A stretch of DNA of 64,000 bases from Escherichia coli (GCF_041248615.1 NZ_CP158426.1), one strand, 5' to 3'. Shown: positions 1,969 to 20,747, counted from the first letter of the stretch. Program-made: numbers and translations. The notes: generated by a model from the letters alone, not told the origin.

Positions 1969-2445
1969 ATGAAACTCATCAGTAATGATCTGCGCGATGG
2001 CGATAAGTTGCCGCATCGTCATGTCTTTAACGGCATGGGTTACGATGGCGATAATATTTCACCGCATCTGGCGTGGGATGATGTTCCTGCGGGAACGAAA
2101 AGTTTTGTTGTCACCTGCTTTGACCCGGACGCGCCAACCGGCTCCGGCTGGTGGCACTGGGTCGTTGTTAACTTACCCGCTGATACCCGCGTATTACCGC
2201 AAGGGTTTGGCTCTGGTCTGGTAGCAATGCCTGACGGCGTTTTGCAGACGCGTACCGACTTTGGTAAAGCCGGATACGGTGGCGCAGCGCCGCCGAAAGG
2301 CGAAACCCATCGCTACATTTTTACCGTTCACGCGCTGGATGTAGAACGTATTGATGTCGATGAAGGTGCCAGCGGCGCGATGGTCGGGTTTAACGTCCAT
2401 TTCCACTCTCTGGCAAGCGCCTCGATTACTGCGATGTTTAGTTAA
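1969..2445 (+). CDS. ybhB: PEBP/YbhB-family protein
   Basis: 158-aa ORF with RBS AGGAGG upstream; last host gene before attR. Confidence 0.9.
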   Translation: MKLISNDLRDGDKLPHRHVFNGMGYDGDNISPHLAWDDVPAGTKSFVVTCFDPDAPTGSGWWHWVVVNLPADTRVLPQGFGSGLVAMPDGVLQTRTDFGKAGYGGAAPPKGETHRYIFTVHALDVERIDVDEGASGAMVGFNVHFHSLASASITAMFS

Positions 2446-2535
2446 TCACTCTGCCAGATGGCGCTATGCCATCTGGTATCACTTAAAGGTATTAAAAACA
2501 ACTTTTTGTCTTTTTACCTTCCCGTTTCGCTCAAG

Positions 2536-2550
2536 TTAGTATAAAAAAGC
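2536..2550. other. attR core (lambda 15-bp common core, reverse orientation)
   Basis: Exact match to reverse complement of GCTTTTTTATACTAA, flanked by host sequence on the ybhB side and lambda P-arm sequence inside. Confidence 0.88.
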
Positions 2551-2694
2551 TGAACGAGAAACGTAAATGATATAAATATCAATATATTAAATTAGATTTT
2601 GCATAAAAAACAGACTACAAAATACTGTAAAACACAACATATGCAGTCACTATGAATCAACTACTTAGATGATATTAGTGACCTGTAACAGAGC
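2551..2694. promoter_or_regulatory. attP P arm (Int arm-type, IHF, Xis/Fis binding region) retained at attR
   Basis: AT-rich sequence adjacent to the core that matches my recollection of the lambda P arm. Confidence 0.6.
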
Positions 2695-2695
2695 A

Positions 2696-2737
2696 TTAGC
2701 GCAAGGTGATTTTTTGTCCTCTTGCGCTAATTTTTTG
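2696..2737 (+). terminator. tI/sib-like rho-independent terminator in the P-arm region
   Basis: Perfect 10-bp stem TTAGCGCAAG/CTTGCGCTAA with 15-nt loop followed by TTTTTT. Confidence 0.55.
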
Positions 2738-3227
2738 TCAACTCACTGGGTTAGTTGAATTTACAACCATGCTCAGTATCTCGATAAGCGCAGGGAGATG
2801 ATGCAGTGGTGGGCGGACTGGCTTGATGAAAGTGTGCTGTAATCCTCATATCCAACCTAAGAGATATGCACAATTTTGTGAATAAGATATTGAGAATTAG
2901 CAAAAGTTTTATTTTGCGTATCATCAATTCAGAATACAAAGTCACATGCTAATGTTCTGCATTGGTATCTTTTGCTTATCCATGTCTACATTATCGCCAA
3001 AATAATAGGTTTTGCCTATCAATTATTTGAATTACTTCCATGAAATTATAACGCACTTGTAATTTTTGATTATTTTTACCTCTCAAGTGTTTTGTTTCTT
3101 CTATCTCTTTGTATTTTTAGCGAAAGTATGCCATATTGCATTCTAATATAACGTGGCGTTGTTTCTGTTTAATGATTTAAATAGTTCAACATAATATTTG
3201 CTAACAAATTATATCCAAGCAAATCAT

Positions 3228-4373
3228 ATGATATTATCATTACAATATATTAGAGGAATAGCATCATTACTTGTTGTTTTATTCCACTTCAGATTCTTGC
3301 TAAATGAGCACTACTCTCAGAAAGATTTGGGTGACCTATTATTTGGGAATGGGCTGTCTGGAGTTGATATATTCTTCATATTAAGTGGATTTATCATCGT
3401 ATACTCAACAAGAAAGAAGGAAGTTAATGATACTTTCTCATTCTCAATTAGAAGAATATTTAGAATATACCCATTACTAATCACATGCTGTTGCATGTAT
3501 TACATAATAAACACTCAATTTCTAACCTATGCTACAGTTGAAAACTTTAGAACCTTACTTATTTCCATCATTCCATTAAATATAAACTGGAATGAAGGCG
3601 CTCCATTCTTTGCCTATAATCTTTTGTACCCGGCCTGGACGATAACATATGAAATTGGTTTCTATGTTTTTTTCGGGGTATCAATGTCTATTTCGCATAA
3701 ATACAGAACAATTATCTGTTCTGTTTTTATAATCATGGTGGTCTCATTTACACAATACTATGTAAATGGAAATATATCATTTTCAGGTGATGTTAGTGCA
3801 GGGTTATTTACAGATAACTGGTTATTAGGATATACAAATGTTATTACATCTCCAATGATGTATGAATTCGTTATTGGGATGTTTCTTTCTGAAATATTTA
3901 CAAACATCAACGAAAGCAAAAGTATTAAAAGGATACTTTCAAAGTATTCGCTTCAAATACTATGGATTTCATGTGGTATATCCATAATATTATTCATTAT
4001 CCAGCGACCTTATGGGCATGGATTGAATGGATTTGGGACTATGGCGATGATACTTATTGCATCATCATTAGTATATGAATACTGCAATATAACACCCAAA
4101 ATAAAAATATTTAATTTCCTTGGTGAAATATCATATTCTTTATATCTAATTCACGCCGTGATACTTGCTTTGTTCTTCTATTATAAGGCAGACCTTGCTG
4201 AAATTGGCATAACTGGTGGATTTTCTGTGTTTTTTTCCTTGGTTATTATCTCAATAACTGCATCATATCCAATATATATTCTCATTGAAAAGCCAATGAT
4301 AAATATAGGTAAACGTTTAATTGACAAGAGAAATAAGAGCATTAACAAAAAAGAAACCGAAATAACAGCGTGA
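3228..4373 (+). CDS. integral membrane acyltransferase, family 3 (putative O-antigen/polysaccharide O-acetyltransferase)
   Basis: Very hydrophobic multi-TM protein; N-terminal R/H motif YIRGIASLLVVLFH typical of acyltransferase family 3; ATG at 3228 chosen over the track's TTG at 3198; AT-rich codon usage. Confidence 0.7.
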   Translation: MILSLQYIRGIASLLVVLFHFRFLLNEHYSQKDLGDLLFGNGLSGVDIFFILSGFIIVYSTRKKEVNDTFSFSIRRIFRIYPLLITCCCMYYIINTQFLTYATVENFRTLLISIIPLNINWNEGAPFFAYNLLYPAWTITYEIGFYVFFGVSMSISHKYRTIICSVFIIMVVSFTQYYVNGNISFSGDVSAGLFTDNWLLGYTNVITSPMMYEFVIGMFLSEIFTNINESKSIKRILSKYSLQILWISCGISIILFIIQRPYGHGLNGFGTMAMILIASSLVYEYCNITPKIKIFNFLGEISYSLYLIHAVILALFFYYKADLAEIGITGGFSVFFSLVIISITASYPIYILIEKPMINIGKRLIDKRNKSINKKETEITA

Positions 4374-4410
4374 TAATGACAAAGTTAGTGCCGGGATACC
4401 CCGGCACTAT

Positions 4411-5748
4411 TTAATCTATTTCGTAAGTGACAGTGATTATCACTTCTGCATTATTACCCAAAACATTTTGATATATATTCATATTACCTGATAATGTAGT
4501 TGCTCCAGTAAGAGTTATATAACTACTATTTGCATCAACCCTTGGAAGTAAAGCGGTAACTGCTGTTGTTAAATTATTATAGTAGCCTGTACTTCCAACA
4601 TATGCAGCTTTATTGCTTGATACATATGGTAACCCTCCAATTCTGAAACCATCTCCTGACCCAATTAAAGTTATACCAAGGTGACATGTTGCCGTTATGA
4701 TATTGCCACTCCTGACATAATTTCCTTTCTGCTGATAATATGTGGCATTACCACCTACAGTCGGAATCCAAACTCCAGTTTCTATATCACCACATGACCA
4801 GTCTTCTGCTGTTGTTAGTTTTCCAGTAACAATAAATTTACTTCCACCACCAGAATTATAAGGAACAAAAATTGGATTTATTCTTGCATAAGTGTTACCG
4901 GTCTGCTCATTAAGATCATTTCTATCAATAAGAACTTGACCATTTTCGAAGTTTGAAATCTGGCAGTCTGTTACACTCCAGTCTCTTAACTTCACATCAG
5001 CATCCATGACACCAATAAGCTTACCAGCATTACCAATTTTTTCTTTATGCATATTTACATACACATTTCTTACCGTAACAGACTGAGGGAACAGATAATT
5101 AGCAGGATTAGTTTTATCACTTAAAACAGATATTACCCAAGGTCTGTATTGAGTACTTACTTCACAATAAAATCCATCAATAAGCGTTCCAGATGCCGCT
5201 GGCCCAAGTAGTATTCCACCTGTAGAGTGATGCGCACTACCTCCAATTACTCTCCCCTTAACGCAGTTAATATAGGCAAAACATCCTAAATCTTGATTGT
5301 CATAGGCTGACATAGCACAGTCTCTAACTGTTACTCGAGAATTTCCTCCGTCATAAGCTGAGCCATCAGTTTTCTTACCAACTATTGATATAAAGTTACC
5401 AATAGCAACTCGACTATAAAAAGTTTTTTTATAACACCCCTCAATTAAAATATCCCAGTTTTCAAACTGAGCATATATATCATAAATGCTGGCATTCCCA
5501 TAATCTATGAAATCACAATATCTTATTTTCGGCGTATAAACGGCACTTTTTATCTTTATACCACCTAATGCTCTCTCCCCACCTGTGAATCTAATGCCAG
5601 TAACGGTGTAATCGCCTTGATAGAAATTATCTGCGGTAGGATTATTTTCGTCAGAATCATCACCCAATATAATAGCAAATTCACTCCCTGAATAATTAAT
5701 TGTCGCCCCCTTATTTGAATATATAGTTACAGGTCTTATAAACTCCAA
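4411..5748 (-). CDS. beta-helix-like protein of unknown function (possible tailspike/depolymerase-like domain); lacks an ATG start, possibly frameshifted or truncated
   Basis: 445-codon ORF whose first codon is TTG; Gly/Asn/Thr/Val-rich repetitive sequence; in-frame upstream TGA; upstream out-of-frame ATG (5831) separated by an A7/T7 tract. Confidence 0.45.
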   Translation of the reverse strand: MEFIRPVTIYSNKGATINYSGSEFAIILGDDSDENNPTADNFYQGDYTVTGIRFTGGERALGGIKIKSAVYTPKIRYCDFIDYGNASIYDIYAQFENWDILIEGCYKKTFYSRVAIGNFISIVGKKTDGSAYDGGNSRVTVRDCAMSAYDNQDLGCFAYINCVKGRVIGGSAHHSTGGILLGPAASGTLIDGFYCEVSTQYRPWVISVLSDKTNPANYLFPQSVTVRNVYVNMHKEKIGNAGKLIGVMDADVKLRDWSVTDCQISNFENGQVLIDRNDLNEQTGNTYARINPIFVPYNSGGGSKFIVTGKLTTAEDWSCGDIETGVWIPTVGGNATYYQQKGNYVRSGNIITATCHLGITLIGSGDGFRIGGLPYVSSNKAAYVGSTGYYNNLTTAVTALLPRVDANSSYITLTGATTLSGNMNIYQNVLGNNAEVIITVTYEID

Positions 5749-6140
5749 AGAATTACTTATCAGATACTCTCCATAAGGAAAAAAATCTCAACTGGTGGTG
5801 AGTACTTTGGTCTGGAGTTTACGTAATTCATAATATTGATTACACCAACATCATAGATAATCGCCACCTTCTGGCGAGGAGCTCCTGATGCAATTAATCG
5901 CCAGGCCTACGCCCATTATTCATGGGTAAATTTTGGACGGAGCCCCCAATTCCATCCTCAATTCTCCCTCGCACTGAGGAGTAGTAAGTGCAATTATTTA
6001 AAAAATCGCAAACAGAATATTATCATTTATTCTTGCATTCTGTTAATTAAAACCACACATAAAAACGTTGATACTTGATAAGTAAGTAGAGTATTATTAA
6101 TGGTTTTAATAACGAACCTTTTAATCATGAGAAGCCTCAA

Positions 6141-7166
6141 ATGACTAGTACCAATAACATAACAAGAAAAAAAATGGATGGAGTAACAATCTTAAGATTT
6201 ATAGCTGCTTTTTATGTGTTTATTTTTCACATTAACATGAGAGTCCCCGTTAATTTTGGAGAGCTTATTAATAAAACCATTAGCAATGGCGTCATTGGCA
6301 TGAGTATTTTCTTCATGCTTTCTGGTTTTGTTTTGACTTATAATTACTATGGTTCCTTGTCAAACAATTACTTCAGGAAGCGAATAGCAAGAATATTTCC
6401 AGCCTATTTATTTTGTGGGCTTTTAACCCTCCCATTTTTGTTATCCAGCGATGCAAGCTTTTTAAAAATGATTGCAAGCATATTCTTGTTTGTTACTGGA
6501 ATGCAATCATGGATTTATCAGACCTTCGATTTTTGGAATTTTAGCGGTACCTGGTCAATATCAGTGGAATTGTTTTTTTATGCCCTGTTTCCATTTTTGA
6601 TAAAAAACATCAACAAAAACAATGTAATTTATGTTTTACTTTTTTCATATTTATCTTCAGCATTATTAATCCCATTATCTGATATAATTCAGGGACCTGT
6701 AGTTTGGTCCGTATATTACGCAACTCCAATATACAGGTTACCAGAATTTGTGGTGGGCGTCTGTATCGCAATACTTTTTTTAAATGGCTATCGTGTTAAC
6801 CATTATACATGGCTATTAAGCATTTTATTATTTCTGTATGCTACCACCCAGCAAAACAATAACTCCATGGGGGTGAACTATCTCACAATTCCTGCGATAT
6901 CAATTATGTTATTGCACCTGGCAAAAATCAACATCAAAAACAACATTGCAAACAGAGCGATCATTTACTTTGGAGATATAAGTTATTCGTTTTATTTGAT
7001 GCAATTACCTATATTATATTACCTGGATCATAATAAAAACTCATTTATTCTTAACTATGGTCTTTTTAGCTGGCTTGTACTTTTTGTTATTAATACTGCA
7101 ATGGCATCATTATCTTATCACTTTCTGGAGAAGAACGATAAAATCAGAAAAATAATTACATCCTGA
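6141..7166 (+). CDS. integral membrane acyltransferase, family 3 (second copy, divergent sequence)
   Basis: 341-aa hydrophobic protein with motif ILRFIAAFYVFIFH; AT-rich. Confidence 0.7.
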   Translation: MTSTNNITRKKMDGVTILRFIAAFYVFIFHINMRVPVNFGELINKTISNGVIGMSIFFMLSGFVLTYNYYGSLSNNYFRKRIARIFPAYLFCGLLTLPFLLSSDASFLKMIASIFLFVTGMQSWIYQTFDFWNFSGTWSISVELFFYALFPFLIKNINKNNVIYVLLFSYLSSALLIPLSDIIQGPVVWSVYYATPIYRLPEFVVGVCIAILFLNGYRVNHYTWLLSILLFLYATTQQNNNSMGVNYLTIPAISIMLLHLAKINIKNNIANRAIIYFGDISYSFYLMQLPILYYLDHNKNSFILNYGLFSWLVLFVINTAMASLSYHFLEKNDKIRKIITS

Positions 7167-7167
7167 T

Positions 7168-7193
7168 TTATTAGGGGGGTACCCCCCTAATAA
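7168..7193. terminator. 26-bp perfect palindrome, candidate bidirectional terminator between convergent genes
   Basis: TTATTAGGGGGGTACCCCCCTAATAA lies between the stop of the + strand acyltransferase (7166) and the stop of the - strand tail fiber assembly gene (7208). Confidence 0.5.
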
Positions 7194-7207
7194 TACACCA
7201 CATAATT

Positions 7208-7603
7208 TCAACGTATTATCTCTGGCCTTTCTGGCCAGGTTATTTCTGGAATTAAGGACAAATCCACTGACATTAAATTATTAACATATTCCTTCCATAA
7301 CAAAAGATTGTTCTTGTTATTTTCACTTATAATACCGAGTAACAAATCTGACTGCCAGTTCATAATTAAACCATTAGCACTATCCAGCAGACACTGTCTT
7401 TCATTCTCTGCCTCACGAAGTAATTCATCATGTGTTTTTGGCGGCTGCGTAGGTGACGAAAGCTTTCCCTTATCATAGAACCAACCAATTCTTACATTAT
7501 CGGATACAGGTATAACTAACGCATTAGTTGGTTGCCAGGCACTCTCACCATCCCATACCGCAATATTGGTAACAACACCATTTTCTATAACGGCATAGTT
7601 CAT
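7208..7603 (-). CDS. tail fiber assembly protein (Tfa-like chaperone)
   Basis: Protein MNYAVIENGVVTNIAVWDGE... resembles the Tfa family N-terminus; immediately downstream of the tail fiber gene with TGATG overlap. Confidence 0.7.
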   Translation of the reverse strand: MNYAVIENGVVTNIAVWDGESAWQPTNALVIPVSDNVRIGWFYDKGKLSSPTQPPKTHDELLREAENERQCLLDSANGLIMNWQSDLLLGIISENNKNNLLLWKEYVNNLMSVDLSLIPEITWPERPEIIR

Positions 7604-8712
7604 CACGCATACTCCCAAATGATTGCAATACCAGCCATTCCGCTACCTCCGGCACGCTGCTGCGTCGCTCCACCGTAGACACAGGCACCACCGCCTCCAC
7701 CACCATGGCCATTAGCATTAATACCTTCGCCTACAATGGCTTGTGACCCAGCCCCCGCACCAAGGATTGAATCGCCGCCAGGCCCCCCCATCGCCAGACT
7801 GCCGGAATACCGAACGCCTGGTGAGCTATAACCGCTTCCAGACCCGATAATATTTGCACCTGTAAATCCCGGCTCAGTATATGCTCCATACGGACCAACA
7901 ACCCCTGGAGCAGTTCCTTCAGCAAGAACATCCCCACCAAGGCCACCTTTGGCAATTATGGTATTGCCGAAAGAGGTTGTTCCCCCGGGAGCACCAACCG
8001 ACGCACTTGCACCAGTGCCACCATATCCGATTGTCACAGTAGTTACGGTTGGATTATCCACGCGAGCTTTAACATACTCCCCGGACATCCCCCCGCCACC
8101 ACAAGCAGCATTATTGGGATAACCGACCTGACAACCACCACCGGCCCCACCACCACCAACAATTTCAACAATAATAAATTTTGTGCCTTTTGTCGGAGTG
8201 TATGTACCTGAGCTTTTAAACACCTGACACTGTATAAGCCTCCCGGAGCCATCTCCCAAACCAAGGTATGCGAGAATGTCATCAATAGTATTTTTGCCGA
8301 TAATATCACGGCCTACCTTAGTGAGGTCGGTCTGCGCAGCCTTATCTGTGCCAGTGAAATACGGTAGCTTATTTGCACCTGTCGCCAGTCCGGCCAGAGC
8401 CGTCAACGTGGCATCAAGCGCCTGATAATCCTTACCGAATGCAGAAGACATTTTGGTAATGAATCCATTCAGGTCGCCATCATCCAATACATCCAGTCCG
8501 CTTTTGTTTGCTGTGTACTGTGCAAGTGCTGCAGCAATAAAGCTGGCCTGCCGAATAACCTTATTGACTTGCGCACTGGAGGCTTTCCCTGCTGTAAATC
8601 CGGATAAAAGCGCGGGCAACGCTTCCCATTCCTCCTGCGATATAACATTGGCATTTCGATCCGTTGCAAACGCTTTAAAGTCATTTTTCGCCATCAGAGT
8701 AATACTCCCCAT
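7603..8712 (-). CDS. tail fiber protein with glycine-rich C-terminal domain
   Basis: 369 aa; conserved fiber N-terminal region then GGxGG-rich repeats; follows baseplate genes. Confidence 0.7.
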   Translation of the reverse strand: MGSITLMAKNDFKAFATDRNANVISQEEWEALPALLSGFTAGKASSAQVNKVIRQASFIAAALAQYTANKSGLDVLDDGDLNGFITKMSSAFGKDYQALDATLTALAGLATGANKLPYFTGTDKAAQTDLTKVGRDIIGKNTIDDILAYLGLGDGSGRLIQCQVFKSSGTYTPTKGTKFIIVEIVGGGGAGGGCQVGYPNNAACGGGGMSGEYVKARVDNPTVTTVTIGYGGTGASASVGAPGGTTSFGNTIIAKGGLGGDVLAEGTAPGVVGPYGAYTEPGFTGANIIGSGSGYSSPGVRYSGSLAMGGPGGDSILGAGAGSQAIVGEGINANGHGGGGGGACVYGGATQQRAGGSGMAGIAIIWEYA

Positions 8713-9374
8713 GCTCCTACATCAAAACCACTGATGAATTCGTTATCCATATCAAAACCAAAAAATTTTGAGCCTTCCGATGGGGTTTCCACCGAAGGTG
8801 TTTCAATGCCACCCGCCCATACCCCGGCAGCTTTTACTGTGAGATACCCCTGTTTAATTGCCGCAATTAACTCACGCGATACATCTGAAATATCAGTATC
8901 AGGAAAGACCCAGACCGATATCGTCATGTCCTGGTTATCGACTATCTGCATTCGCAGTCCGGATCCTACTGTCGCCGCGTCAAGAATTGCTGGAAGCGAA
9001 TCATTCCGTCCGTCCCAGTTATTAATCGCAATCTTCGCTTTAAGGATGACACGATAAGTTTCATCGCTGAGGTACATGTATCCGGAATCAGGATCGTATG
9101 GCCCCTGCCATACACCCTGATCATATCCAAGCCCGTCGGTATCCCAGCTGAAATAGACACCTGAGATAGGCTGGCTGACAACACGGCTACGTCCGATCCA
9201 CAATCCAAGAATGTCAAGTTGCACACCAACCGCAGAGTCAATATCAAATGCAGTAATCAGCCCTCTGGTGGCAGCCGCAACATCAATAAGCGGCCGGGTC
9301 ATCAGATCAACATGTGCAAGAAATTTAGGTTTGGTGGCGTGGTAGTTCGTGATCAGTTCGGTGTATTTGCTCAT
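8694..9374 (-). CDS. baseplate/tail protein (gpI or Mu gp48-like)
   Basis: 226-aa ORF between the baseplate J-like gene and the tail fiber gene; position-based. Confidence 0.55.
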   Translation of the reverse strand: MSKYTELITNYHATKPKFLAHVDLMTRPLIDVAAATRGLITAFDIDSAVGVQLDILGLWIGRSRVVSQPISGVYFSWDTDGLGYDQGVWQGPYDPDSGYMYLSDETYRVILKAKIAINNWDGRNDSLPAILDAATVGSGLRMQIVDNQDMTISVWVFPDTDISDVSRELIAAIKQGYLTVKAAGVWAGGIETPSVETPSEGSKFFGFDMDNEFISGFDVGAWGVLL

Positions 9375-10570
9375 GACTCCACCGTTATAACGATATTTTC
9401 CGGTGTACAGGACGCAGATTCGTTGTATCTGATATCAATGTTTGATGACGACAAAGCCCCCGGGGATTTCCCAATCGTCAGTTCCTGAATATCGTAATAG
9501 CGTGCATTCCCGCCACTCACCACGCCAAGATTCGCCGGTGAGTAAATGCGACTTAAAAGGACCGAATCACCAATCATCAGACTATTGATATAGTCGGAAA
9601 TAGCCTGCTGGATCTGCTGCCCTATCTGTGAGGTATAACCCGTAAAAACTTTTAATTTAATCCGGGCATAAACAGGTACATCACTGGAACGCGAGAATTT
9701 GATTACATGGGGATTGCCGTATTTATCCGGAACCGTAACGGATGTTGTACCGTGAGTGGCTGTCCCCTGGCCTTTATTCCCTCTAATAGCCTGAGCAATA
9801 TCCGTCACATCACCGCCATCCACAATTACAGCAACAGAGTGTGGCGGTAACCCGTTACCGTCCTCCGAACCAGTATCGTTTTCATAGAGTTTGTGGCGGG
9901 TTACACCGGTAACATTAGAAACAGCACCATCCAGTGCTTCAAATGGGGTTATTGATGGCAACGCAACACTTTGCGACTGGCGGATACGTAACTCCGCATC
10001 AGTTTCTGCTGGAGTGCCTACAGTAGCTGCAGCAGGATTGGTTACCGAAACCCAGCCACGGGTTGGCGTATTAATTTCAGTGATAGTTCCAGCCAGCGCC
10101 GCCACTGCACCACTGACGGAACATTTTGCGGTCACCATCACTGTACCATCCACGCCGACCACCACTGAAGCAGGCAAACGCCATATCACATTATTACCAT
10201 CTTTCACGCTGCCATTAATGATGGTTGTTCCGGCAGTTCCTGTAAGAAGCAAATCAACCGTAGAATTCGTCGCGCCTTTACGTGAAATACCATTTATTTT
10301 CACGTTACTGGTCAGCGCAGCCCCATAGCCGGTTGCCGGTGAAAAACAGTTGTAGACAGTTATCGCCATATTATTGGCATCATGAATCGCCAGCGCCATC
10401 AGAGCCACCATCTGGCCGTCTTTGCTGTCCGGTTCGAGGTAGGCATCACTGCCATAAATCTGCTGAAAATAGCTAATCAGGGTGCTGAGTATCGTCTGAT
10501 AATCAGGCGCACTGATCCCCTCCGCGGTTACCTTTGCAGATAAACCGAGAGAATCAAGGTTCAGAGCCAT
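9371..10570 (-). CDS. baseplate J-like protein
   Basis: 399-aa ORF in conserved W-J-I order of contractile-tail baseplate clusters. Confidence 0.7.
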   Translation of the reverse strand: MALNLDSLGLSAKVTAEGISAPDYQTILSTLISYFQQIYGSDAYLEPDSKDGQMVALMALAIHDANNMAITVYNCFSPATGYGAALTSNVKINGISRKGATNSTVDLLLTGTAGTTIINGSVKDGNNVIWRLPASVVVGVDGTVMVTAKCSVSGAVAALAGTITEINTPTRGWVSVTNPAAATVGTPAETDAELRIRQSQSVALPSITPFEALDGAVSNVTGVTRHKLYENDTGSEDGNGLPPHSVAVIVDGGDVTDIAQAIRGNKGQGTATHGTTSVTVPDKYGNPHVIKFSRSSDVPVYARIKLKVFTGYTSQIGQQIQQAISDYINSLMIGDSVLLSRIYSPANLGVVSGGNARYYDIQELTIGKSPGALSSSNIDIRYNESASCTPENIVITVES

Positions 10571-10923
10571 TACGCCTCCGATGTAACAGTCGTTATTCCA
10601 TAAAGAGTGTCGATTTCAGCGGAAAACATGACACGTCGGGTCGTGGTATCCACCGTCGTATTGAAAGAGAGGATTGATTTAACGCCCTGCGTTTCGAGGA
10701 TGCGTTTTCTGATCGCCAGGTTGTAAGTTTCCGGTTTTTGCCTGCCCAGCACGGACTGGATCCACGGAGTCCCCTCGGTGGTGTCGAGAAACCATTGCCC
10801 ATACCACAATTCGAATCGCGTTTTTACCGCCTGCGCCACGGCCTCCGGTGAGTTAATCAGCCAGGTGTCATCACCGCTGCCAAAGGTGTAATCGCCATCG
10901 GCGTCTTCACGTCTGTATCGCAT
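10570..10923 (-). CDS. baseplate wedge protein (GPW/gp25-like)
   Basis: 117 aa, tightly coupled between spike and J-like genes. Confidence 0.6.
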   Translation of the reverse strand: MRYRREDADGDYTFGSGDDTWLINSPEAVAQAVKTRFELWYGQWFLDTTEGTPWIQSVLGRQKPETYNLAIRKRILETQGVKSILSFNTTVDTTTRRVMFSAEIDTLYGITTVTSEA

Positions 10924-11675
10924 CAGTTTACTCCGTCGGTATTGCTTCCACCGCGCTGAACACCACCATGAGTGTGCGTATCATCGATTGGCTTGCCGTT
11001 AGCCTTCACGCTACCCAAAAACTCAACAGCACCAGTGATTTTTGAAGCCACACCAGAAACAACAGACCCCACCATGCCACCCATCCAGGTTAACAGGCCA
11101 TGAATGGTTACTTTCTCAGAAAAATCAGCCAGAGGAGCAACCACATCAAGACCACCCGGAGCGACAATTTTAATTTTCCTGGTGTCAGGATTAAGCTCAA
11201 AATAGGTGCTGCCGTCGTCACTACGCAACTGTGTGGCACTGGTATTAATACCGCTAATCTTCCTCGCCTGCGACTGGGGACCGACAATACAAAACGCATC
11301 CGATAAATCATGCATTCTGTCATCGACCGGCTCCTGTATCCCGCCACTCTGCCACCAGAAATCAATACAACGATCGGCAAAAACGACAAGACACTCATCC
11401 CCGGCTTTTACCGGAAAAGTCAACGTACAGCCTCCGCCGCGCGGGAATACCACTGGTACATCCACCAGCAATGGGTAATTTTGGGTAATGCGGTTGCCGT
11501 CATTATCCTTTTCAACCGAACGGATAGCAGGCTGCACAACTGCCGTCACCGCATCAGGATCGAATGACTGAATAATGCCAGGCAAGGCGACACGGATCTG
11601 GTTCTTTGTTGTTTCCCGTTCAGATTTGAATGTTTCGGCAAGGTCGCCGCTGCGGGTCTGGTCAGATACTGCCAT
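10923..11675 (-). CDS. baseplate spike/assembly protein V-like
   Basis: 250 aa, Gly-rich C-terminus, precedes the W-like gene. Confidence 0.6.
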   Translation of the reverse strand: MAVSDQTRSGDLAETFKSERETTKNQIRVALPGIIQSFDPDAVTAVVQPAIRSVEKDNDGNRITQNYPLLVDVPVVFPRGGGCTLTFPVKAGDECLVVFADRCIDFWWQSGGIQEPVDDRMHDLSDAFCIVGPQSQARKISGINTSATQLRSDDGSTYFELNPDTRKIKIVAPGGLDVVAPLADFSEKVTIHGLLTWMGGMVGSVVSGVASKITGAVEFLGSVKANGKPIDDTHTHGGVQRGGSNTDGVN

Positions 11676-11694
11676 TTAGTAGGCTCCAGAAAGC

Positions 11695-11720
11695 AAAAAA
11701 CCCGCCATCCGGCGGGTTTT
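11695..11720 (-). terminator. rho-independent terminator downstream of the lipoprotein gene
   Basis: Stem CCCGCC/GGCGGG with loop ATCC, flanked by A6 on one side and T4 on the other (T6 on the reverse strand). Confidence 0.6.
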
Positions 11721-11740
11721 ATGTGACTAATTTGATCTTT

Positions 11741-12466
11741 TCAGTTTATAAGCCCCATCTTACCGGCGCTTCGATAGTTAATTACATCGCCTGAAGAGCC
11801 GCAAGGCACAGCTACAGTCGACATTTTGACAAATCCTTTACCGCCCTGCTTTTGGCATAAAGTGGCATGCATTTTTGCTAAACGCGCAGCATGACCAAAA
11901 TCAATTTTGGTTCCGTAAGTTGAATCTCGTAGAGCTGCTTTTTTTGCAATTCCAGTAATATTTTTGTCTTTAATTACAGATGCAAACAAACTCAAATCAT
12001 TTCCAATTTGATTGAAGCAAGTACGATTAATATCAACATCGGCATACGCTGAAATGCGTTTGCAATCTGAGATCTGAGAAAGCACAGATGTGTTAACCAG
12101 TTGCAAATTTAATTTGTAGTCACCGACATAGGTATAAACTTTGTTAGGGTCCGTGGTTCCCGGATAACGAGTTACGAATGGAATGCTGTTGTACGCATCT
12201 CGCAAAGATTCTGCACCCTTACTTTTAAGCTCGTTCCCAACACCAGCAACGATAACCTCTGGATGTGAAACTTCAAATTGAGACTTTTCTTCGCGCTGTA
12301 TTTGAAGCCTGCTTTTCTGGCTCTCCTCAACTTGCTTATCGTACGCTTGTTTTTCTTCATTTTTTTGGGATAGCCATTTTTCCTGCGCTTTAGCACCATT
12401 AGGATCCCAACTACATGAAGTTAAAAAAAGAGAAAATACGATTGTGGTTATCGCAAGCCTGCTCAC
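11741..12466 (-). CDS. predicted lipoprotein of unknown function, inserted within the baseplate gene cluster
   Basis: Signal peptide with lipobox MSRLAITTIVFSLFLTSC; E/K/Q-rich coiled-coil-like segment then Cys-containing C-terminal domain; AT-rich relative to neighbours; own terminator. Confidence 0.6.
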   Translation of the reverse strand: MSRLAITTIVFSLFLTSCSWDPNGAKAQEKWLSQKNEEKQAYDKQVEESQKSRLQIQREEKSQFEVSHPEVIVAGVGNELKSKGAESLRDAYNSIPFVTRYPGTTDPNKVYTYVGDYKLNLQLVNTSVLSQISDCKRISAYADVDINRTCFNQIGNDLSLFASVIKDKNITGIAKKAALRDSTYGTKIDFGHAARLAKMHATLCQKQGGKGFVKMSTVAVPCGSSGDVINYRSAGKMGLIN

Positions 12467-12468
12467 TA

Positions 12469-13533
12469 TTATGCACCTCGATTCATCGCTGACTGGCTAG
12501 GAATATCACTAGCACCTCGAGCAAAGCACATCATATCCATGTACCACGCCTGGCCCCTTGTGTCGCCAGTGTACATAATCCCGCGCACAATATAAACGCC
12601 ATCCGTTGCGATGCTGGCAGGTTGTGCTGTGGTGCCGCTGAGTGTGATATTTCCGTCCGTGTTCTGGTCGGTGATCTGCCCACCAGCCATCGCAATATCA
12701 TTGTTCGACAGCGCGGTGCGGTACACGGAAGCCTGATCCAGCTGAATAAGCCCGTTAACCCGGATGTTCGGATTAATAAGCGCGCGGACGTTTACGCCGT
12801 TACCGATAGTCTGCTGCGGCATGCCAATAAGCCCGGTAGCGCTGTTGAGCACAATCGCTTCATGAACATATTCGTTATTCGCCACCATCTGGCGCTGACC
12901 GTCCACGAATTGCCATGTTGCGCCACATTGCCCGGCTACGTTATCCATTAGATGCCGCGTCATGCCAAAGAGCACCCGCCCCCGGGGGAATACAGTAGCA
13001 GGCATTTCAGGCGTCAGGCCTTCGGTCGCACCTTTGGCTTCGAAGTCTTTCATCAGCGCACGGTTCACATCAGCGACCGTGTAACCGGCAGCCAGCGTCT
13101 GTGAGGTTATACTGGTGGCAAAAGCCAGATCAGTATCTGCTGCCTGAATCAGGACGTAGGAATCAACCGGACTGTCTTTTCCTGTGACCGAGTAGCGAAT
13201 TTCACCGCTGAAAATCAGTCCGTAGTTGCGGCCATCTCTCTGGCCCACGTCCGCCGCGTCAACTTCCCGCACGGTCCCTACGTCGCTTGCTGACACCTCC
13301 GGCGCGATACCGTCGTAACCGGCAATCAGACGCACTTTCGAAAATTCCTGCCCGGTGATTCGGTTCACAGTATCTGCCGAGAGGTTATAAATTTTGATAG
13401 TCCCTACCCGGGACGCGCTGCTGATGTTGAACCAGTCGATCGTAAAGGTGACTTTGAAATCACTTAGCTCAATTCCCTGACCGTTCCCGTCCACAAGCTG
13501 CAGCTCGAAATGTCTCATCCAGTTCTGTGACAT
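12469..13533 (-). CDS. tail/baseplate structural protein (hub-like by position)
   Basis: 354-aa ORF between tape-measure-proximal genes and the spike gene. Confidence 0.45.
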   Translation of the reverse strand: MSQNWMRHFELQLVDGNGQGIELSDFKVTFTIDWFNISSASRVGTIKIYNLSADTVNRITGQEFSKVRLIAGYDGIAPEVSASDVGTVREVDAADVGQRDGRNYGLIFSGEIRYSVTGKDSPVDSYVLIQAADTDLAFATSITSQTLAAGYTVADVNRALMKDFEAKGATEGLTPEMPATVFPRGRVLFGMTRHLMDNVAGQCGATWQFVDGQRQMVANNEYVHEAIVLNSATGLIGMPQQTIGNGVNVRALINPNIRVNGLIQLDQASVYRTALSNNDIAMAGGQITDQNTDGNITLSGTTAQPASIATDGVYIVRGIMYTGDTRGQAWYMDMMCFARGASDIPSQSAMNRGA

Positions 13534-13535
13534 GC

Positions 13536-13838
13536 TTACTCCGTTGATACCAGTAAATGACTGAGGCCGCCCAGATCAGTTTTCGTGGGATAATCCTGTG
13601 TGTTGTCATCGCAGACCACCACCAGCTTAAAACCAAGTCCCATACAGGCGTACTGCGCCAGCAGGTCAGCACCAGTGACGAGAGGAATACCGGAGATTAC
13701 CGGCTCCCCTCTGTCGTTCTGCAGGTCCATAATCCAGTACAGATCGCGCCATATGATGCTAATCCGCCAGGTAACACCACCCAGGACGATGCTGAACTGC
13801 TGGTTGTCCGCTGTCAGCGGAATTTCCTGAATTGTCAT
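13536..13838 (-). CDS. tail protein, small
   Basis: 100-aa ORF translationally coupled to neighbours in the tail cluster. Confidence 0.4.
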   Translation of the reverse strand: MTIQEIPLTADNQQFSIVLGGVTWRISIIWRDLYWIMDLQNDRGEPVISGIPLVTGADLLAQYACMGLGFKLVVVCDDNTQDYPTKTDLGGLSHLLVSTE

Positions 13839-14425
13839 TAGCCGCCCCCCAGTAATGACGCCACGTTACCCGTGATGCTTTTCAGCAGTGAAGTATCTGG
13901 AGGCTTTGTGGTTTTGTTGCCGCTATTCTGTACCGCCGACGTGCTGGCCCCTTCCTTCATGTTGGTTTTATCCGCGACGGTAATCTGCTGTGTCCGGGAG
14001 ATAAGGACCTCCCTCAGGGTGAGGACGGCGGACAGGACGTTTTCGGTTGTCTTGTCCGTCGTCACTTCCAGCGCCCGGATCAACATGTTGCTGTACAGTC
14101 GTTTACCGGTTACCACATCGAAGGGGATACGGCTTTCCTGCAGATCCAGTAGCTCCTGATACGTCTGCTGAGGACTCAGGCCGAGCAGGCTGGTAGCCGT
14201 CAGATTACTGGCAAAATCCAGCAATGCGCCGCCACCGGCGAAACCAACCTCCATCACCACTTCTGACGGTTTTTTATAGGCATGATCAGCGACAGCGGCC
14301 CCAACCTCTACCGGATGCTCTGTTATTTCAAGCATATCTGTATGCTTCTCTGAAATAACAACACTGGGAACAATCATTCCTATTTTTCTGCTCTGCTGAT
14401 GAAAAAGTGTAGAGAGAATATCCAC
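13838..14425 (-). CDS. tail protein of unknown function
   Basis: 195-aa ORF immediately after the tape measure gene, coupled stop/start. Confidence 0.4.
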   Translation of the reverse strand: MDILSTLFHQQSRKIGMIVPSVVISEKHTDMLEITEHPVEVGAAVADHAYKKPSEVVMEVGFAGGGALLDFASNLTATSLLGLSPQQTYQELLDLQESRIPFDVVTGKRLYSNMLIRALEVTTDKTTENVLSAVLTLREVLISRTQQITVADKTNMKEGASTSAVQNSGNKTTKPPDTSLLKSITGNVASLLGGG

Positions 14426-16413
14426 TAACCCACCCTCACCTGATTACTTCGCATGACCTGAGCATTTGCAGACTGTTGCCGACGTGCAACCTCATTACCG
14501 ACAGCGTGCGGATCTCCGCCACCGTAAATGTGGTAGGTATTTTGCTGGTTAACCTCTGTCACTTTGCCACTAATTCCCGCCACGGCAGCCTTATTAATCA
14601 GCTCTCGAGAATAGATATTTCTTCCATTCTCATGCTGGATAATGCTGCTCATCAATGCTGACATGGTTTGCGGATCGCTCATATTCAGGGCAGCCCGGGG
14701 ATCCACTCCCAGTCGTTGCGATACAGCCCTGATATACGCAGTTGTGTTGTTATTATCAGACGCAGGTGCCCAGGTAGAGATAATTTTCTCCACACTGTTT
14801 ATTCCCCGTCCGGCGTACAGCATTAACTGACGAGCAAGAGCCCGTAATCCATCAAAGGCAGTTTCAAATCTGGCAAATCGCCCGCCCGGGCGTTCAAGAG
14901 AAGCCCCTGCCTGACCAGCAAAATTAAGGTTTCCCGGATTGTTATTCCGTTCTCCTCGTTTCGTAGCCTGTGCATGTTGTTCCGGCTCATCATCACCAAA
15001 CCAGCCGCGTACCGTCCGGCCCACACTGCGGGGATCAAATCCCCAGTGCTCTTTAATCCAGTCGGCAGTACTGTTAGCGCTGTCTGTAACCATCGGCATC
15101 GCTGACGGATTTTCGCTGCCCTGATTAAGTATCTGTTTGCCGATGCTGACGGCATCAGCCCAGCGGCCATCTTTGATAGCGTTGAGCAGGTCGGCGATCA
15201 TGTTCAGCATTTTGCTGAATTCGCCCATCTGGTCGATGAAGTTGCTGAAATCCCACTTCAGGGACCATGATTTGGGGTCAATATTGAGCAGTTTCGCCAG
15301 CGCTTTCACCAGGTCGTTAACGGTCGTTTTAAGGTCACGAACCATCTTCAGCGCGGCATCAACCTCCGGTTTCCACTTGCCCCAGTCAATCAGGCTGTCG
15401 CCGCCTTCCTTCCAGGTCTGATAGTCCTCCCACAGGAGGGCAATCCCCGCCGCCAGCGCGGTAATGAGGCCAATCGGCGACATCCAGAACGTACTGTTCA
15501 GAATGCGCAGCGCAATCGTCAGTGCGCCAAACAGCGAGATCAACTCCCGCGTTTGCTTATCCAGCGATTGCCACCAGGTGATGAGGCCTGATGTCCCCTC
15601 AATCAGTCTGAAGAACAGCCGCCCGATAATATCCCCGAGCGCCAGAATGCCTTTTATGGCTTTCGTCAGGGTCTGCTCGATACGCGGGAAGTTGTCCAGG
15701 ATATGGCGGCGCAGTGTGTCCAGCGAACCCGCAAGCCCACCCGCAAGATTAGAGCCGATTTTGTCACGGGCCATGCCTGCCATCGCGCCAAACTCACGCA
15801 GGGAGGTCATAAATTTGTTGGAGCTTCTGGCCGCCTCGTCAGCATTGAAGCCGATAGCTTTCGCCATTGCGCTGTACTGCCCGGAGAAGCCACCCACACC
15901 GCGACGCATAGCCAACAGGGTATTTTCGTCAATGCCCAGCATCTGCGCATACTGGTTAGCACGGTAATACGGCATGTCGCTGAGCTTCTGGCCTACCCCT
16001 GTAAAAATAGCGGCCATGTCACGCATGTTACCGCTGGCATCCCGTGTCTGTACCCCCAGACGATTCAGAAATCCCTCCGCCCCGGGATTATTACGAATAA
16101 ACCGGGAGAGGTTTTCCAGAGAAGATCGCGCAGCGTCCACGCTGCCGCCAACCTGCGAAACCGCATAGCCAATAGACTGAATTCCCTGGACTGTCGCGCC
16201 GGTGCGCTGTGACGCCCAGTAAAGATTATCCAGGCCGGAGGCGATCTTAGCCGTGAAGGCCACCACGGACAGCGCCGCTCCTTCGACGGCCAGCCCCATT
16301 TTGATGACATTTGCAGTTGTACCGGCGAGGACAGAACCGAATTTTTTCGCTCCTGCATCATCCACACTGAAGCCAAGCGAGACAAGGAAATCTTTAATAG
16401 TCTCGGCGTTCAT
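14425..16413 (-). CDS. tail tape measure protein
   Basis: Long Ala/Gly/Leu-rich protein following the chaperone gene; start MNAETIKDF with RBS GGAGAGAGG. Confidence 0.7.
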   Translation of the reverse strand: MNAETIKDFLVSLGFSVDDAGAKKFGSVLAGTTANVIKMGLAVEGAALSVVAFTAKIASGLDNLYWASQRTGATVQGIQSIGYAVSQVGGSVDAARSSLENLSRFIRNNPGAEGFLNRLGVQTRDASGNMRDMAAIFTGVGQKLSDMPYYRANQYAQMLGIDENTLLAMRRGVGGFSGQYSAMAKAIGFNADEAARSSNKFMTSLREFGAMAGMARDKIGSNLAGGLAGSLDTLRRHILDNFPRIEQTLTKAIKGILALGDIIGRLFFRLIEGTSGLITWWQSLDKQTRELISLFGALTIALRILNSTFWMSPIGLITALAAGIALLWEDYQTWKEGGDSLIDWGKWKPEVDAALKMVRDLKTTVNDLVKALAKLLNIDPKSWSLKWDFSNFIDQMGEFSKMLNMIADLLNAIKDGRWADAVSIGKQILNQGSENPSAMPMVTDSANSTADWIKEHWGFDPRSVGRTVRGWFGDDEPEQHAQATKRGERNNNPGNLNFAGQAGASLERPGGRFARFETAFDGLRALARQLMLYAGRGINSVEKIISTWAPASDNNNTTAYIRAVSQRLGVDPRAALNMSDPQTMSALMSSIIQHENGRNIYSRELINKAAVAGISGKVTEVNQQNTYHIYGGGDPHAVGNEVARRQQSANAQVMRSNQVRVG

Positions 16414-17043
16414 TATCCTCTCTCCATTTCTCAATGCGCCGCTGGTTATCCGCTTTTACCGCCAGATGGTCATTCAAGAGAGCAATGTCGTACAAATCGA
16501 CAGAGCCATCTTTAAGTGCTGTATAAGGAATTAACCCGGCGTCAACCGGATTGAGAAGGTAGGACAGCCCGTCCGGCAGGCTGTTAAACGTCAGCCCTGT
16601 TGCAGGCTCTGCGTCGTGCTGGTAAGGGGTGTAGGCAAAAAATTTCCCAGCGAATCGGCGACCACCCGCGCCACCAGCTGCAGCATGACCAGCAGGTCAA
16701 TATCATCAAACATCAGTTCGCCCTGGGTAAATACCGGCACCCATCCGTCCATATGACGCCGCGATACCACCGCAAGACAGGGATGAATAATCGCATCGGT
16801 GTCATCTTCGGTCAGGGAAGACAGTTCCTCAGCGATACGCGGGAGCATGGTTTCAAACACCGGTTTTAACTGCTCGAATTTCACGGTGTCGATTTTGCCG
16901 TCAGCAGGCAAACGGGAGCGAATGCTCCCGAAATCTGACATCATTCCCGCCAGTACCGGCAGAAGTTTGCGGGTCACTTTCAGCTGGTCAAAAACGCTGA
17001 GTTTTGCCACGCGATATTTCACGCCTTTGATTTCGAATTCCAT
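16394..17043 (-). CDS. tail assembly chaperone, predicted -1 frameshift fusion product (long form)
   Basis: From the slippery site (about 16639..16645) the -1 frame stays open for ~80 codons to a TAA at 16394..16396 overlapping the tape measure start. Confidence 0.5.
16591..17043 (-). CDS. tail assembly chaperone (short form)
   Basis: 150 aa, between tube and tape measure genes; contains slippery heptamer A_AAT_TTT near its 3' end. Confidence 0.55.
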   Translation of the reverse strand: MEFEIKGVKYRVAKLSVFDQLKVTRKLLPVLAGMMSDFGSIRSRLPADGKIDTVKFEQLKPVFETMLPRIAEELSSLTEDDTDAIIHPCLAVVSRRHMDGWVPVFTQGELMFDDIDLLVMLQLVARVVADSLGNFLPTPLTSTTQSLQQG

Positions 17044-17046
17044 GTA

Positions 17047-17487
17047 TTAAAACTCCCCGAGAACCTGGTCAATCTTGCCGCAGTCAAACACCCACGGCAT
17101 CGTATTACCGGTTTTAGCGTTGGCATTATCCGGTTGTTTCTGGAACGCAACACTGCGTGCCGTGATGATGTCGCCGCTGACCTTGTTGCGGATCACGATA
17201 ACGTTATTCCCCCATGTGGCAGAAGACTGGCTCTGTGCGTTATACGCCAGCGACAATTTTTTATTTGTCGGTGATGTCTTCAGAAGGTTAACGGTAATCG
17301 TCCCGCTTTTATCTGCATGGAGGCTGTGCATCACTTCACCATCAGCACCGATGGTCATGGTGTTTTTAGGACCGCCCATCGCAACCACAATCCCCTCTTC
17401 AGAACTTGCAGAACCGTACCCGAGGTCAATCGAACCGGTCGGGCCGGTCAGCGTCGCAGTGACATCCATAAAAGAATAGGTAGACAT
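17047..17487 (-). CDS. tail tube protein
   Basis: 146 aa directly downstream of the sheath gene. Confidence 0.6.
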   Translation of the reverse strand: MSTYSFMDVTATLTGPTGSIDLGYGSASSEEGIVVAMGGPKNTMTIGADGEVMHSLHADKSGTITVNLLKTSPTNKKLSLAYNAQSQSSATWGNNVIVIRNKVSGDIITARSVAFQKQPDNANAKTGNTMPWVFDCGKIDQVLGEF

Positions 17488-17497
17488 TCACTTCCCC

Positions 17498-18643
17498 TTA
17501 GCGAACAACGTTAATCTGTACGTCAGCGTAATGAACCGCGCCTGCAAGTTTTATTGCAGCCTGAATCACCGGAGCCTTACGGGCTTCACGTTCTGATTGT
17601 GCCTGTTCATCCAGCGGCTGGGCGTATACGTAATAACCTTTGGGCAGTGTGTCACCTGATGACAACTGACCAAGGTCGCCCCCGTTCCATACGCCCGGAG
17701 CAATCAGTCCATTCTGAACGGCCTGATCCAGTGATTTTTCAACATTTGATAACAGTCGGGTAATACCAGCTTCAGTCTGGGGAACTTTCGTGGTGCTGGT
17801 ATAAAGCAGGTTATAGAGGTTGGTCTGCACATAATTCTGTAACCAGTCCAGGCCGTGGCGTTCATCAAAGAAATCGCCGTTAGCCATCACTCCCTGCTGG
17901 AGGATAGCCGTATCATTCTGGTAGTACACGAATACATTGCAGTTTTTTGCATCAAGTGCCGATGCCTGGCTGACTGTCAGTGTTTCATACCCGACACCCG
18001 GCTCCTGCTTAAACTTGAGCGTAATCGCGGTATTACTGCCATTGAAATTAACCGTGAATACCCGGCCAAATGCAGATAACGCAGCGTATTTATTACCCGA
18101 TGAATACTGAATAAAACTGCGTGAATATCCGGCGGTTTTCAGTTTTGATGCCAAATCATCGCTGGATGCAGTCTGCAGGCATTTATCATCGCTTGTCGTA
18201 ATCGCCAGAATACGGCTTACAGAAGAGGATTCGATCGCCGCAGCCACTTTCAGCCAGTCTGCATCCGGAATATCTTCATCGTCTGCAATCCCCAGCCCAT
18301 ACCATGAAGTATAATCGAGCATGGCATTCACAGCCTGCTCCAGCGTCTCAGGCGTGGCCTGTTCGCTGTCACCCTTCGTTTTCACCCAACGACCAACAAA
18401 AACCTCCTGAGGTTTCGGTGATTGTGAGAAAAACACCTGCGCAGCCTTATATTCTGGTGATTCCACGCCAAAATCTTTTCCAATATCTTCCGCGGCAGAA
18501 TAACGGCGAATGCGCTCACTTACCGGAATGATTGTGGACGGGCCGAGAATGAGTAATGCACCAAAATTTCGCCCTGATGCTGCACGCGGCGACATGATCA
18601 CATCAACATTAACAACGTTTGATACAGGCAAGCCCTGTGCCAT
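17498..18643 (-). CDS. contractile tail sheath protein
   Basis: 381 aa, position and size typical of short sheath proteins; precedes the tube gene. Confidence 0.65.
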
Positions 18644-18646
18644 AGC

Positions 18647-20519: not shown

Positions 20520-20706
20520 TTTTTACCTCGTTACGCGCGTCTGTGGCTTTGCCAACGGATACTTCCGCGTGCGCACGAGTGAACCAGTGCGTGGCAACGT
20601 CTTCCTCCACAGCATGACGGCCTTTAACAAACTCGCGCCGTGAACCGTCGGGAAGCGTGAGCACAAACGGGGTATGTACGTGTATTACTGCATTATTTTT
20701 TGCCAT
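20485..20706 (-). CDS. small hypothetical protein
   Basis: 73-aa ORF between capsid and connector genes; start uncertain. Confidence 0.3.
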
Positions 20707-20747
20707 CGGGTCATCCTTAATGGCCCCGCCAGGGGGCCATGTGGCTG

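Follow-up and report, generated by a model that had tools for sequence, protein, structure and literature searches.

The window analysed here is a 64,000-nucleotide (nt) stretch of Escherichia coli DNA (GCF_041248615.1, NZ_CP158426.1; positions are counted from its first letter), and our subject is the island at 2741–7207, beside the attR site of a prophage, in which two genes for family-3 acyltransferases (AT3), called AT1 and AT2 below, lie on either side of a 445-codon open reading frame (ORF) on the opposite strand. We put the probability at roughly 0.8 that this island was assembled from two lysogenic-conversion cassettes of independent origin, lying one after the other at the attR end of a lambdoid prophage with a myovirus-type tail. 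Judged by their homologies, AT1 together with the ORF, which proved to be what is left of a phage tailspike gene, and AT2 are two DNA segments with separate ancestries. A first-pass annotation, made from the sequence alone, had placed the three genes at the positions and on the strands at which ORF calling finds them, and had suggested that they could be a single undescribed module, a proposal that the two ancestries do not support.

In the course of events that we propose, cassette A (5841–7207) would be native to the resident phage, with AT2 convergent with the tail fibre assembly gene (tfa) and followed by a dead relic of the DNA invertase gene pin. Cassette B (2757–5854) would be a 3.1-kb fragment from a P22-like (Lederbergvirus-type) prophage of the argW site in O7 E. 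coli. Its right end would have joined the pin relic by recombination at a microhomology of 10–13 nt, while its left end lies in an integrase 3′ relic beside the lambda-type P arm, and AT1 is the only intact gene that it carries.

Cassette B matches an intact P22-like prophage

A megablast search with AT1 and the ORF yielded one genome in which a "phage head-binding domain-containing protein" was annotated, that of E. coli 2018-05-5CC, an O7 strain. The locus in question (L022) is an intact P22-like prophage at argW, with the gene order tRNA-Arg, intS, AT1 (381 aa), a convergent intact tailspike gene of 649 codons, HNH, arc, and P22-type ejection and tail genes. Positions 2757–5854 of the window (3.1 kb) aligned to L022 8529–11628 at 98.6% identity, in a block comprising the last 86 nt of intS, the spacer between int and AT1, AT1 itself, a G+C-rich terminator-like hairpin (4386–4409), and the tailspike gene to about codon 170. 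The AT1 protein of the window differed from the L022 copy by three amino acids, and AT1 relatives at 52% identity were located between a P22-like tailspike gene and an integrase gene, at argW.

At the left end of this block, RefSeq records 2759–2842 as a pseudogene without an N-terminus, and we found that 2536–2845, including the integrase 3′ relic beside the P arm, is common to phage 434-type genomes at approximately 85% identity. On the evidence of these alignments, the integrase relic may have supplied the homology for the left crossover. A side observation concerns the 434-type lambdoid phages themselves (H124–H126), which carry an IntS/P4-type integrase 3′ relic of about 90 nt adjoining sib and the P arm, approximately 85% identical to the window; a relic of this kind could be a site at which cassettes from argW-type phages recombine repeatedly. 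At the right end, cassette B is fused to the pin relic via a microhomology at 5843–5855, a shared stretch of 13 nt, of which CCAACATCAT is exact in both parents; here PinE closes the stretch with YDVGV and the tailspike reads DDVGV. As read from the two parental sequences, this stretch marks a microhomology crossover of 10–13 nt.

Disruption of a tailspike gene left the 445-codon ORF

The ORF between the acyltransferase genes (4411–5748, minus strand) was searched in Pfam, PHROG, NCBIfam and PADLOC, with no match. An AlphaFold2 model built from an alignment of 19 homologues was all-beta and helix-like with a C-terminal beta domain (mean predicted local distance difference test score, pLDDT, 84.7), and a Foldseek search of the PDB with this model gave the phage tailspikes of Det7 and HK620 as best matches, together with CBA120 TSP2 and Klebsiella depolymerases. 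The E-values for the Det7 and HK620 tailspikes ranged from 9e-11 to 1e-6, yet the TM-scores were low, at 0.25–0.35. The beta-helix-like character that the first-pass annotation had seen in this gene was reproduced in the predicted fold and its structural neighbours, and not in the profile searches.

In a large protein search, full-length relatives of the ORF were 616–660 aa long. The closest among these, P0002, is a 648-aa protein named "phage tailspike protein" with a Head_binding domain (PF09008) and a Pect-lyase_RHGA_epim domain (PF12708); its residues 1–184 matched the N-termini of the Sf6 and P22 tailspikes in the PDB, and the entire ORF aligned to its residues 205–648 with 82% amino-acid identity. 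The gene for P0002 lies in a P22-like prophage, after gp7, gp20, gp16 and mnt/arc and adjacent to an integrase gene, at the argW/yfdC site. When we compared P0002 with the window by tblastn, we found its residues 170–194 encoded at 5852–5778 in another frame, which shows that the ORF is only the end of a gene that was once longer and has been disrupted. Relative to L022, the tailspike part has a single gap, one nucleotide missing from a T8 run at 5778; this deletion shifts the frame, and the 445-codon ORF is the portion downstream of it. The window has no head-binding domain PF09008, which both intact relatives, P0002 and L022, possess; the remnant begins at about codon 170, and the part that is still open begins at codon 205. 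Because the head-binding domain and the start of the Pect-lyase domain are missing, Pfam no longer recognises the protein. The ORF can start only at a TTG that lacks a Shine-Dalgarno sequence within 15 nt, and its first in-frame Met is residue 146.

Since the donor tailspike gene was cut at about codon 170 and frameshifted, sequence comparison identifies the ORF as what remains of a pseudogene: the head-binding domain, the first rungs of the beta-helix, an ATG and a Shine-Dalgarno sequence are all missing. The suggestion that it encodes a beta-helix partner that binds or cleaves polysaccharide gives way to that of a decapitated, frameshifted tailspike 3′ part, whose intact counterpart in another E. 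coli encodes 649 aa and is 98.6% identical in nucleotides. Compared with the intact tailspike gene, the remnant showed 19 synonymous and 5 non-synonymous codon changes, a pattern that would be compatible with divergence while both copies were functional, and in which present-day constraint is not separable from divergence before the truncation.

Two further observations on tailspikes of this group were made in passing. At L003/L004, 12008–14008, the P0002 gene is convergent with a gene for a 666-aa AT3-SGNH fusion acyltransferase, unlike the AT3-only AT1; tailspikes that are close relatives are thus accompanied by acetylases of different architecture. Protein gp63.1 of phage St11Ph5 was 56% identical to the tailspike remnant; we dropped it as a guide to sugar specificity, as the host is O5 and infection is apparently independent of O-antigen, leaving nothing usable.

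Cassette A belongs to the tail-fibre end of the resident prophage

The stretch at 5841–9000 was 99.7% identical to a sister prophage of strain 8178 (L006), which is integrated beside pphA and has the tail fibre gene, tfa, AT2 and the same pin relic, without AT1 and without the tailspike. The AT2 protein (WP_000204789.1) is identical in this prophage at its different site. We also found the unit of tfa, AT2 and pin relic in a Mu/e14-type tail module of strain CFE299 (L007), and a relative of AT2 at 58% identity occupies the same convergent slot after tfa, in the same baseplate module, in many metagenomic contigs (L015–L019). From this recurrence, the end of the tail-fibre operon is thus a place where phages of this type usually carry AT2.

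The pin relic (49.5% G+C) retains approximately 35 C-terminal codons, with the translation ...E*WA*AWRLIASGAPRQKVAIIYDVGV, asterisks marking stops, compared with ...EQWAQAGRLIAAGTPRQKVAIIYDVGV in PinE; its alignment to PinE therefore reveals two in-frame stops and the loss of the N-terminal resolvase catalytic domain. On the other side of AT2, where that gene and tfa converge, lies the perfect 26-nt palindrome TTATTAGGGGGGTACCCCCCTAATAA, which the first-pass annotation had correctly marked as bordering the island and whose limits (7168–7193) were read by eye from the sequences of the inverted-repeat arms. It is probably a bidirectional terminator. As to the tail fibre gene beyond tfa, 7603–8712 (minus strand) is a single open ORF of 369 codons with tail-fibre PHROG matches along its full length; RefSeq divides it into a "glycine-rich domain" CDS at 7603–8451 and a pseudogene at 8425–8694, a split that is probably an annotation artefact.

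AT1 and AT2 are intact, distantly related AT3-only proteins

Both acyltransferases matched the Pfam family PF01757 (Acyl_transf_3), AT1 with an E-value of 1.2e-30 over model positions 2–325 of 326 and AT2 with an E-value of 4.7e-27 over positions 3–315. In PHROG, AT1 matched phrog_3333 "O-acetyltransferase" (E = 2.7e-72), and AT2 matched the same family (E = 2e-40) as well as phrog_6705 "O-antigen acetylase" (E = 1.7e-19). The signatures of AT3 proteins are R/K-X10-H in the first transmembrane helix, V-X-X-F-F-X-(I/V/L)-S-G-(F/W/Y), and RXXR in the first cytoplasmic loop (PMC9558356). In AT1 we found R9-H20 (RGIASLLVVLFH), VDIFFILSGF and RIFR; in AT2, R19-H30 (RFIAAFYVFIFH), MSIFFMLSGF, in which the first V is replaced by M, and RIAR. 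The earlier identification of two family-3 acyltransferases with an N-terminal Arg/His motif was thus confirmed by profile and motif alike. The Pfam search found no SGNH domain in either protein. A Kyte-Doolittle scan, which is crude and was run with a strict threshold, gave 6 strongly hydrophobic segments in AT1 and 7 in AT2, where the AT3 family expectation is about 10 transmembrane helices. The length of AT1 is counted from the RefSeq ATG; the mechanically called ORF begins at a TTG at 3198.

AT1 and AT2 could be aligned with each other at 31% identity over 83 residues only, and on that ground we rejected the possibility that they are duplicates. Neither protein was matched by a model of NCBIfam or of PADLOC, and from the latter result we conclude that AT1 and AT2 are not part of any catalogued defence system. 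No GATC sites occur upstream of AT1 (2843–3227) or upstream of AT2, and Dam/OxyR-type phase variation, as in gtr operons, was rejected because of their absence.

The prophage and the limits of the island

The window sequence matches that of E. coli NRZ14408 (NZ_LT599825.1) at 100% identity. The host genes bioA and ybhB end at 2445, and exact matches to the lambda att core (GCTTTTTTATACTAA) are found at 2536–2550 and 44885–44899 (0.01 expected by chance), with ybhC beyond the second; att-lambda is therefore the site of a prophage of some 42 kb. Positions 2536–2740 were 97.6% identical over 205 nt to the attP P arm and sib region of lambda, HK629 and HK630, and the hairpin at 2688–2738 (inverted repeat I2) is one that we take, from lambda biology, to be sib/tI. 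According to the annotation, the prophage has a lambdoid early region (int, xis, cIII, kil, cI-like, cro, cII, O/P, nin and Q), lysis genes, and a contractile tail module (sheath and tube proteins DUF3383 and DUF3277, baseplate J, tail fibre and tail fibre assembly). The resident phage is a lambdoid phage with a myovirus-type tail, in O7 E. coli at the lambda att site. The features in and around the island are collected in Table 1.

Table 1. Features in and around the acyltransferase island, in order of position in the window.
Feature	Coordinates	Strand	Basis
Att core, attR	2536–2550	-	Exact att core sequence; second copy, attL, at 44885–44899
Lambda-type attP P arm	2551–2740		Identity to lambda-type attP; inverted repeat I2
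IntS-type integrase 3′ relic, last 86 nt; left end of captured fragment	2757–2842	+	L022 homology; RefSeq pseudogene
AT1 upstream region, presumed promoter site	2843–3227	+	Within 98.6% block common to L022
AT1, intact AT3-only acyltransferase, 381 aa	3228–4373	+	Pfam, PHROG, motifs
Bidirectional terminator-like hairpin, AT1/tailspike convergence	4386–4409		10-bp stem, 7 G-C pairs, both strands
Tailspike pseudogene, approximately codons 170–649 of P22-like tailspike	4411–5854	-	Homology to P0002 and L022
Relic of pin/gin-type DNA invertase, C-terminal helix-turn-helix (HTH) part only	5841–5945	-	86% nt identity to pinE; RefSeq HTH pseudogene, internal stop
AT2 upstream region, presumed promoter site	5946–6140	+	99.7% identity to L006
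AT2, intact AT3-only acyltransferase, 341 aa	6141–7166	+	Pfam, PHROG, motifs
Perfect 26-nt palindrome, AT2/tfa convergence	7168–7193		Arms of inverted repeat I1
Tail fibre assembly gene (tfa), last of resident tail operon	7208–7603	-	phrog_188, phrog_136; RefSeq
Tail fibre gene, resident prophage	7603–8712	-	phrog_11303, E = 6.5e-84; phrog_863

The G+C content of the island is 33.6%, compared with 54.2% in the bioA-ybhB host stretch and 49.3% in the remaining prophage, which bears out the first-pass description of an AT-rich island beside attR; by gene, it is 31.1% in AT1, 32.1% in AT2 and 35.9% in the tailspike remnant. The long stretches that had been described as AT-rich and non-coding are in part the relics of genes, namely of int (2757–2842), of the tailspike (5749–5854) and of pin (5841–5945). 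An Rfam scan of 2400–7700 (E ≤ 0.1) returned no match. Terminator-like hairpins were enriched in our scan (9, with 2.8 expected), and promoter-like sites numbered 26 against the 27.4 expected from shuffled sequence; because the scan was no richer than shuffled sequence we claim no promoter, and the candidate upstream of AT2, TTGATA-18-TATTAT at 6068–6097, is to be read in the light of a scan that was not above chance as a whole.

Elsewhere in the prophage, RefSeq annotates genes for tRNA-Thr and tRNA-Asn at 29842–29997 (minus strand), between the Q antiterminator and the holin gene. It also records frameshifts in the nin-region Ser/Thr phosphatase and in ren (30568–31124 and 33109–33388), and the prophage, complete as it otherwise looks, may thus have begun to decay. 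The cargo at 36633–39024, which separates the repressor gene from cIII, comprises several unusual genes in RefSeq, among them those for a "Nmad5 family putative nucleotide modification protein" and a 321-aa TolA-like protein; these genes may be accessory or defence-related.

Predicted function and its alternatives

Because of their analogy with Sf6 Oac and other AT3-only acetylases (PMC9558356), AT1 and AT2 are predicted to acetylate O-antigen, and O-acetylation of the O7 antigen is their likely function. As inner-membrane AT3-only enzymes, they would take acyl groups from cytoplasmic acetyl-CoA and would O-acetylate the O-antigen repeat unit at the periplasmic side, with O7 as the most likely target; because the two proteins are only distantly related, they probably act at different positions. 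The altered receptor would block adsorption of O7-specific phages, and acetylation would shield the O-antigen of the lysogen from cognate tailspikes and alter its antigenicity. In rough E. coli B, AT1 and AT2 would have no O-antigen substrate.

Genomic position and host serotype both point to O-antigen as the acceptor. Each of the two genes adjoins a receptor-binding-protein gene and/or the att-int region, which is the position of seroconversion genes. The O7-type wzx of REL606 was found in 94 of 5426 complete genomes; of 50 AT1-bearing genomes, at least 48 have an O7 wzx (a count that leaves out NZ_CP159453.1 and NZ_CP135658.1), including the window strain, 2018-05-5CC and several lineages outside B in which the wzx allele differs. 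About 17 genomes carry AT2 alone. Strain 8178, with AT2 but no AT1, belongs to O7 as well, and Lederbergvirus prophage tailspikes have been found to track the O-serogroup of the host (PMC10408124). The earlier suggestion of a phage-borne pair of O-antigen acetylases is accordingly upheld in part, by the AT3 identity of both proteins, by the PHROG names "O-acetyltransferase" and "O-antigen acetylase", and by genomic position.

Several points weigh against this prediction and the reading of the island that goes with it. The O7 association is partly clonal, since E. coli B derivatives make up many of the genomes, and to our knowledge the published O7 structure is without O-acetyl groups. A tblastn search of 50,697 phage records with AT1 and AT2 (E ≤ 1e-5) recovered no characterised acetylase, Sf6 oac included, and the best annotated matches among these records were 28–39% identical. 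Neither protein showed a close relationship to Sf6 Oac, OafA/OafB or phiV10 Oac, to which the likeness is at family level only (phrog_3333, phrog_6705), and an acceptor other than O-antigen could be involved. In addition, the tailspike ORF is still open, with 19 synonymous changes to 5 non-synonymous ones, and residual expression from the TTG would be conceivable.

We weighed three other accounts of the island. The first-pass proposal, a single module for surface-polysaccharide modification or superinfection exclusion in which all three genes take part and the 445-aa beta-helix protein is an active partner, can draw on an ORF that stays open over 445 codons, on a predicted beta-helix with a C-terminal beta domain that resembles enzymatically active tailspikes, and on the joint occurrence of AT1, the ORF and AT2 in 49 genomes; moreover, the P22 tailspike minus only its head-binding domain stays active. 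However, those genomes are about 99.8% identical, and for this reason we attribute the co-occurrence to recent common descent and not to selection. What the ORF encodes begins only at residue 205 of a 649-aa tailspike; the rest of the gene, upstream, is out of frame and joined to the dead pin relic; the start is limited to a TTG without a nearby Shine-Dalgarno sequence; and AT1 with the tailspike differs in ancestry from AT2, all of which makes a working three-gene module very improbable.

That AT1, AT2 or both acylate some other glycan, such as enterobacterial common antigen (ECA), colanic acid, capsule, the lipopolysaccharide core or peptidoglycan, is in our view unlikely. Both genes are intact in E. 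coli B, which is rough and has no O-antigen, and some relatives are named "exopolysaccharide production protein ExoZ" in databases. AT3-only enzymes also use many acceptors, as with WecH on ECA and IcaC on poly-N-acetylglucosamine (PNAG) (PMC9558356). Against this, each gene stands beside an O-antigen-directed receptor-binding gene and the O7 association is strong, and retention in E. coli B needs no selection, because the strain became rough recently. We consider it quite unlikely, too, that AT1 and AT2 are inert leftovers, unexpressed or without activity, comparable to the neighbouring relics of int, tailspike and pin. Those three relics and a promoter scan not above chance would fit such a view, as would the main text of the BL21(DE3) transcriptome paper, where the island genes are not mentioned; yet both ORFs are full-length and have kept all AT3 signature motifs, AT1 is only 3 residues from its copy in an intact phage, the AT2 protein is found unchanged in a prophage elsewhere, and each gene has its own upstream region and downstream hairpin, as is typical of morons. 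Returning to the two conversion cassettes directed at O-antigen, a bolder version, which we regard as rather doubtful, would have AT1 and AT2 as non-redundant acetyltransferases that add previously unreported O-acetyl groups to O7 and so give resistance to two classes of O7-specific phages, the P22-like donor and the resident myovirus-tailed type. A headless tailspike remnant that is made from the TTG and stays with the cell, binding or trimming O7, would be a still less likely addition to this version.

Relation to known phage systems

The closest parallel for cassette B is offered by Shigella phage Sf6 (tailspike gene 14, oac, int) and the seroconversion modules of P22-like phages, in which an AT3-only gene lies between tailspike and integrase exactly as in L022; the role expected to be shared with Sf6 oac is to acetylate O-antigen and so block the receptor that the phage itself uses. 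Unlike in Sf6, AT1 is not a close Oac homologue (tblastn, E ≤ 1e-5), the cassette of the window has moved to another type of phage at att-lambda and kept only relics of int and tailspike, and the likely target of AT1 is E. coli O7 instead of the S. flexneri backbone. In the Salmonella Lederbergvirus SI8, a tailspike gene, a convergent AT3 gene ("ExoZ"), a lambda-type attP and int follow in the same order and orientation as in the window, and the P arm of its attP is 80% identical to window 2528–2829. SI8 differs in that its AT3 is only 29% identical to AT1 and its tailspike is intact and functional. Coliphage Kapi1 is described as a temperate P22-like phage of argW that uses and modifies O-antigen, with an uncharacterised acyltransferase-like gene between tailspike and integrase (bioRxiv 10.1101/2021.04.09.439263); Kapi1 was not among the tblastn matches of AT1 and AT2.

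Cassette A can be compared with the tail-fibre/invertase modules of Mu, P1 and e14 (S/U-gin, stfE/tfaE-pinE), of which it keeps the tail fibre gene, tfa and a C-terminal pin fragment. Unlike in those modules, the invertase is dead, and AT2 sits where the invertible segment would be, between tfa and pin.

The whole island recurs in the cryptic prophage "lambda-B" of E. coli B (REL606, BL21), where it is 99.8% identical and lies at the same site, attB-lambda. Lambda-B measures 12.1 kb and is shared across the B lineage (PMC4395058), whereas the prophage of the window is about 42 kb long, with complete head, tail, lysis and early regions of which the B copy has lost most; the window prophage is the full-length form of the lambda-B remnant. 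When REL606 (L001) was compared with window 8700–25500, the entire tail and most head genes were seen to be lost in B, with the acyltransferase island untouched, and the tail-fibre end was joined to a truncated gene of the portal region that is annotated as an "anti-CBASS Acb1 family" pseudogene.

Implications

What appeared to be a new three-gene module reduces to a well-understood pattern, that of acetyltransferase morons beside receptor-binding genes together with the debris of recombination between phages. The island preserves, at base-pair resolution, a record of the transfer of a podovirus cassette into a lambdoid phage with a myovirus-type tail, via a microhomology of 10–13 nt. The intact O7-associated P22-like prophage provides, in its 649-aa tailspike, a candidate O7-specific reagent. 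For the two uncharacterised acyltransferases carried by all E. coli B and BL21 laboratory strains, the analysis offers a specific assignment, with O7 antigen as the predicted substrate, and this assignment as O7 acetyltransferases could matter for glyco-engineering in BL21 derivatives.

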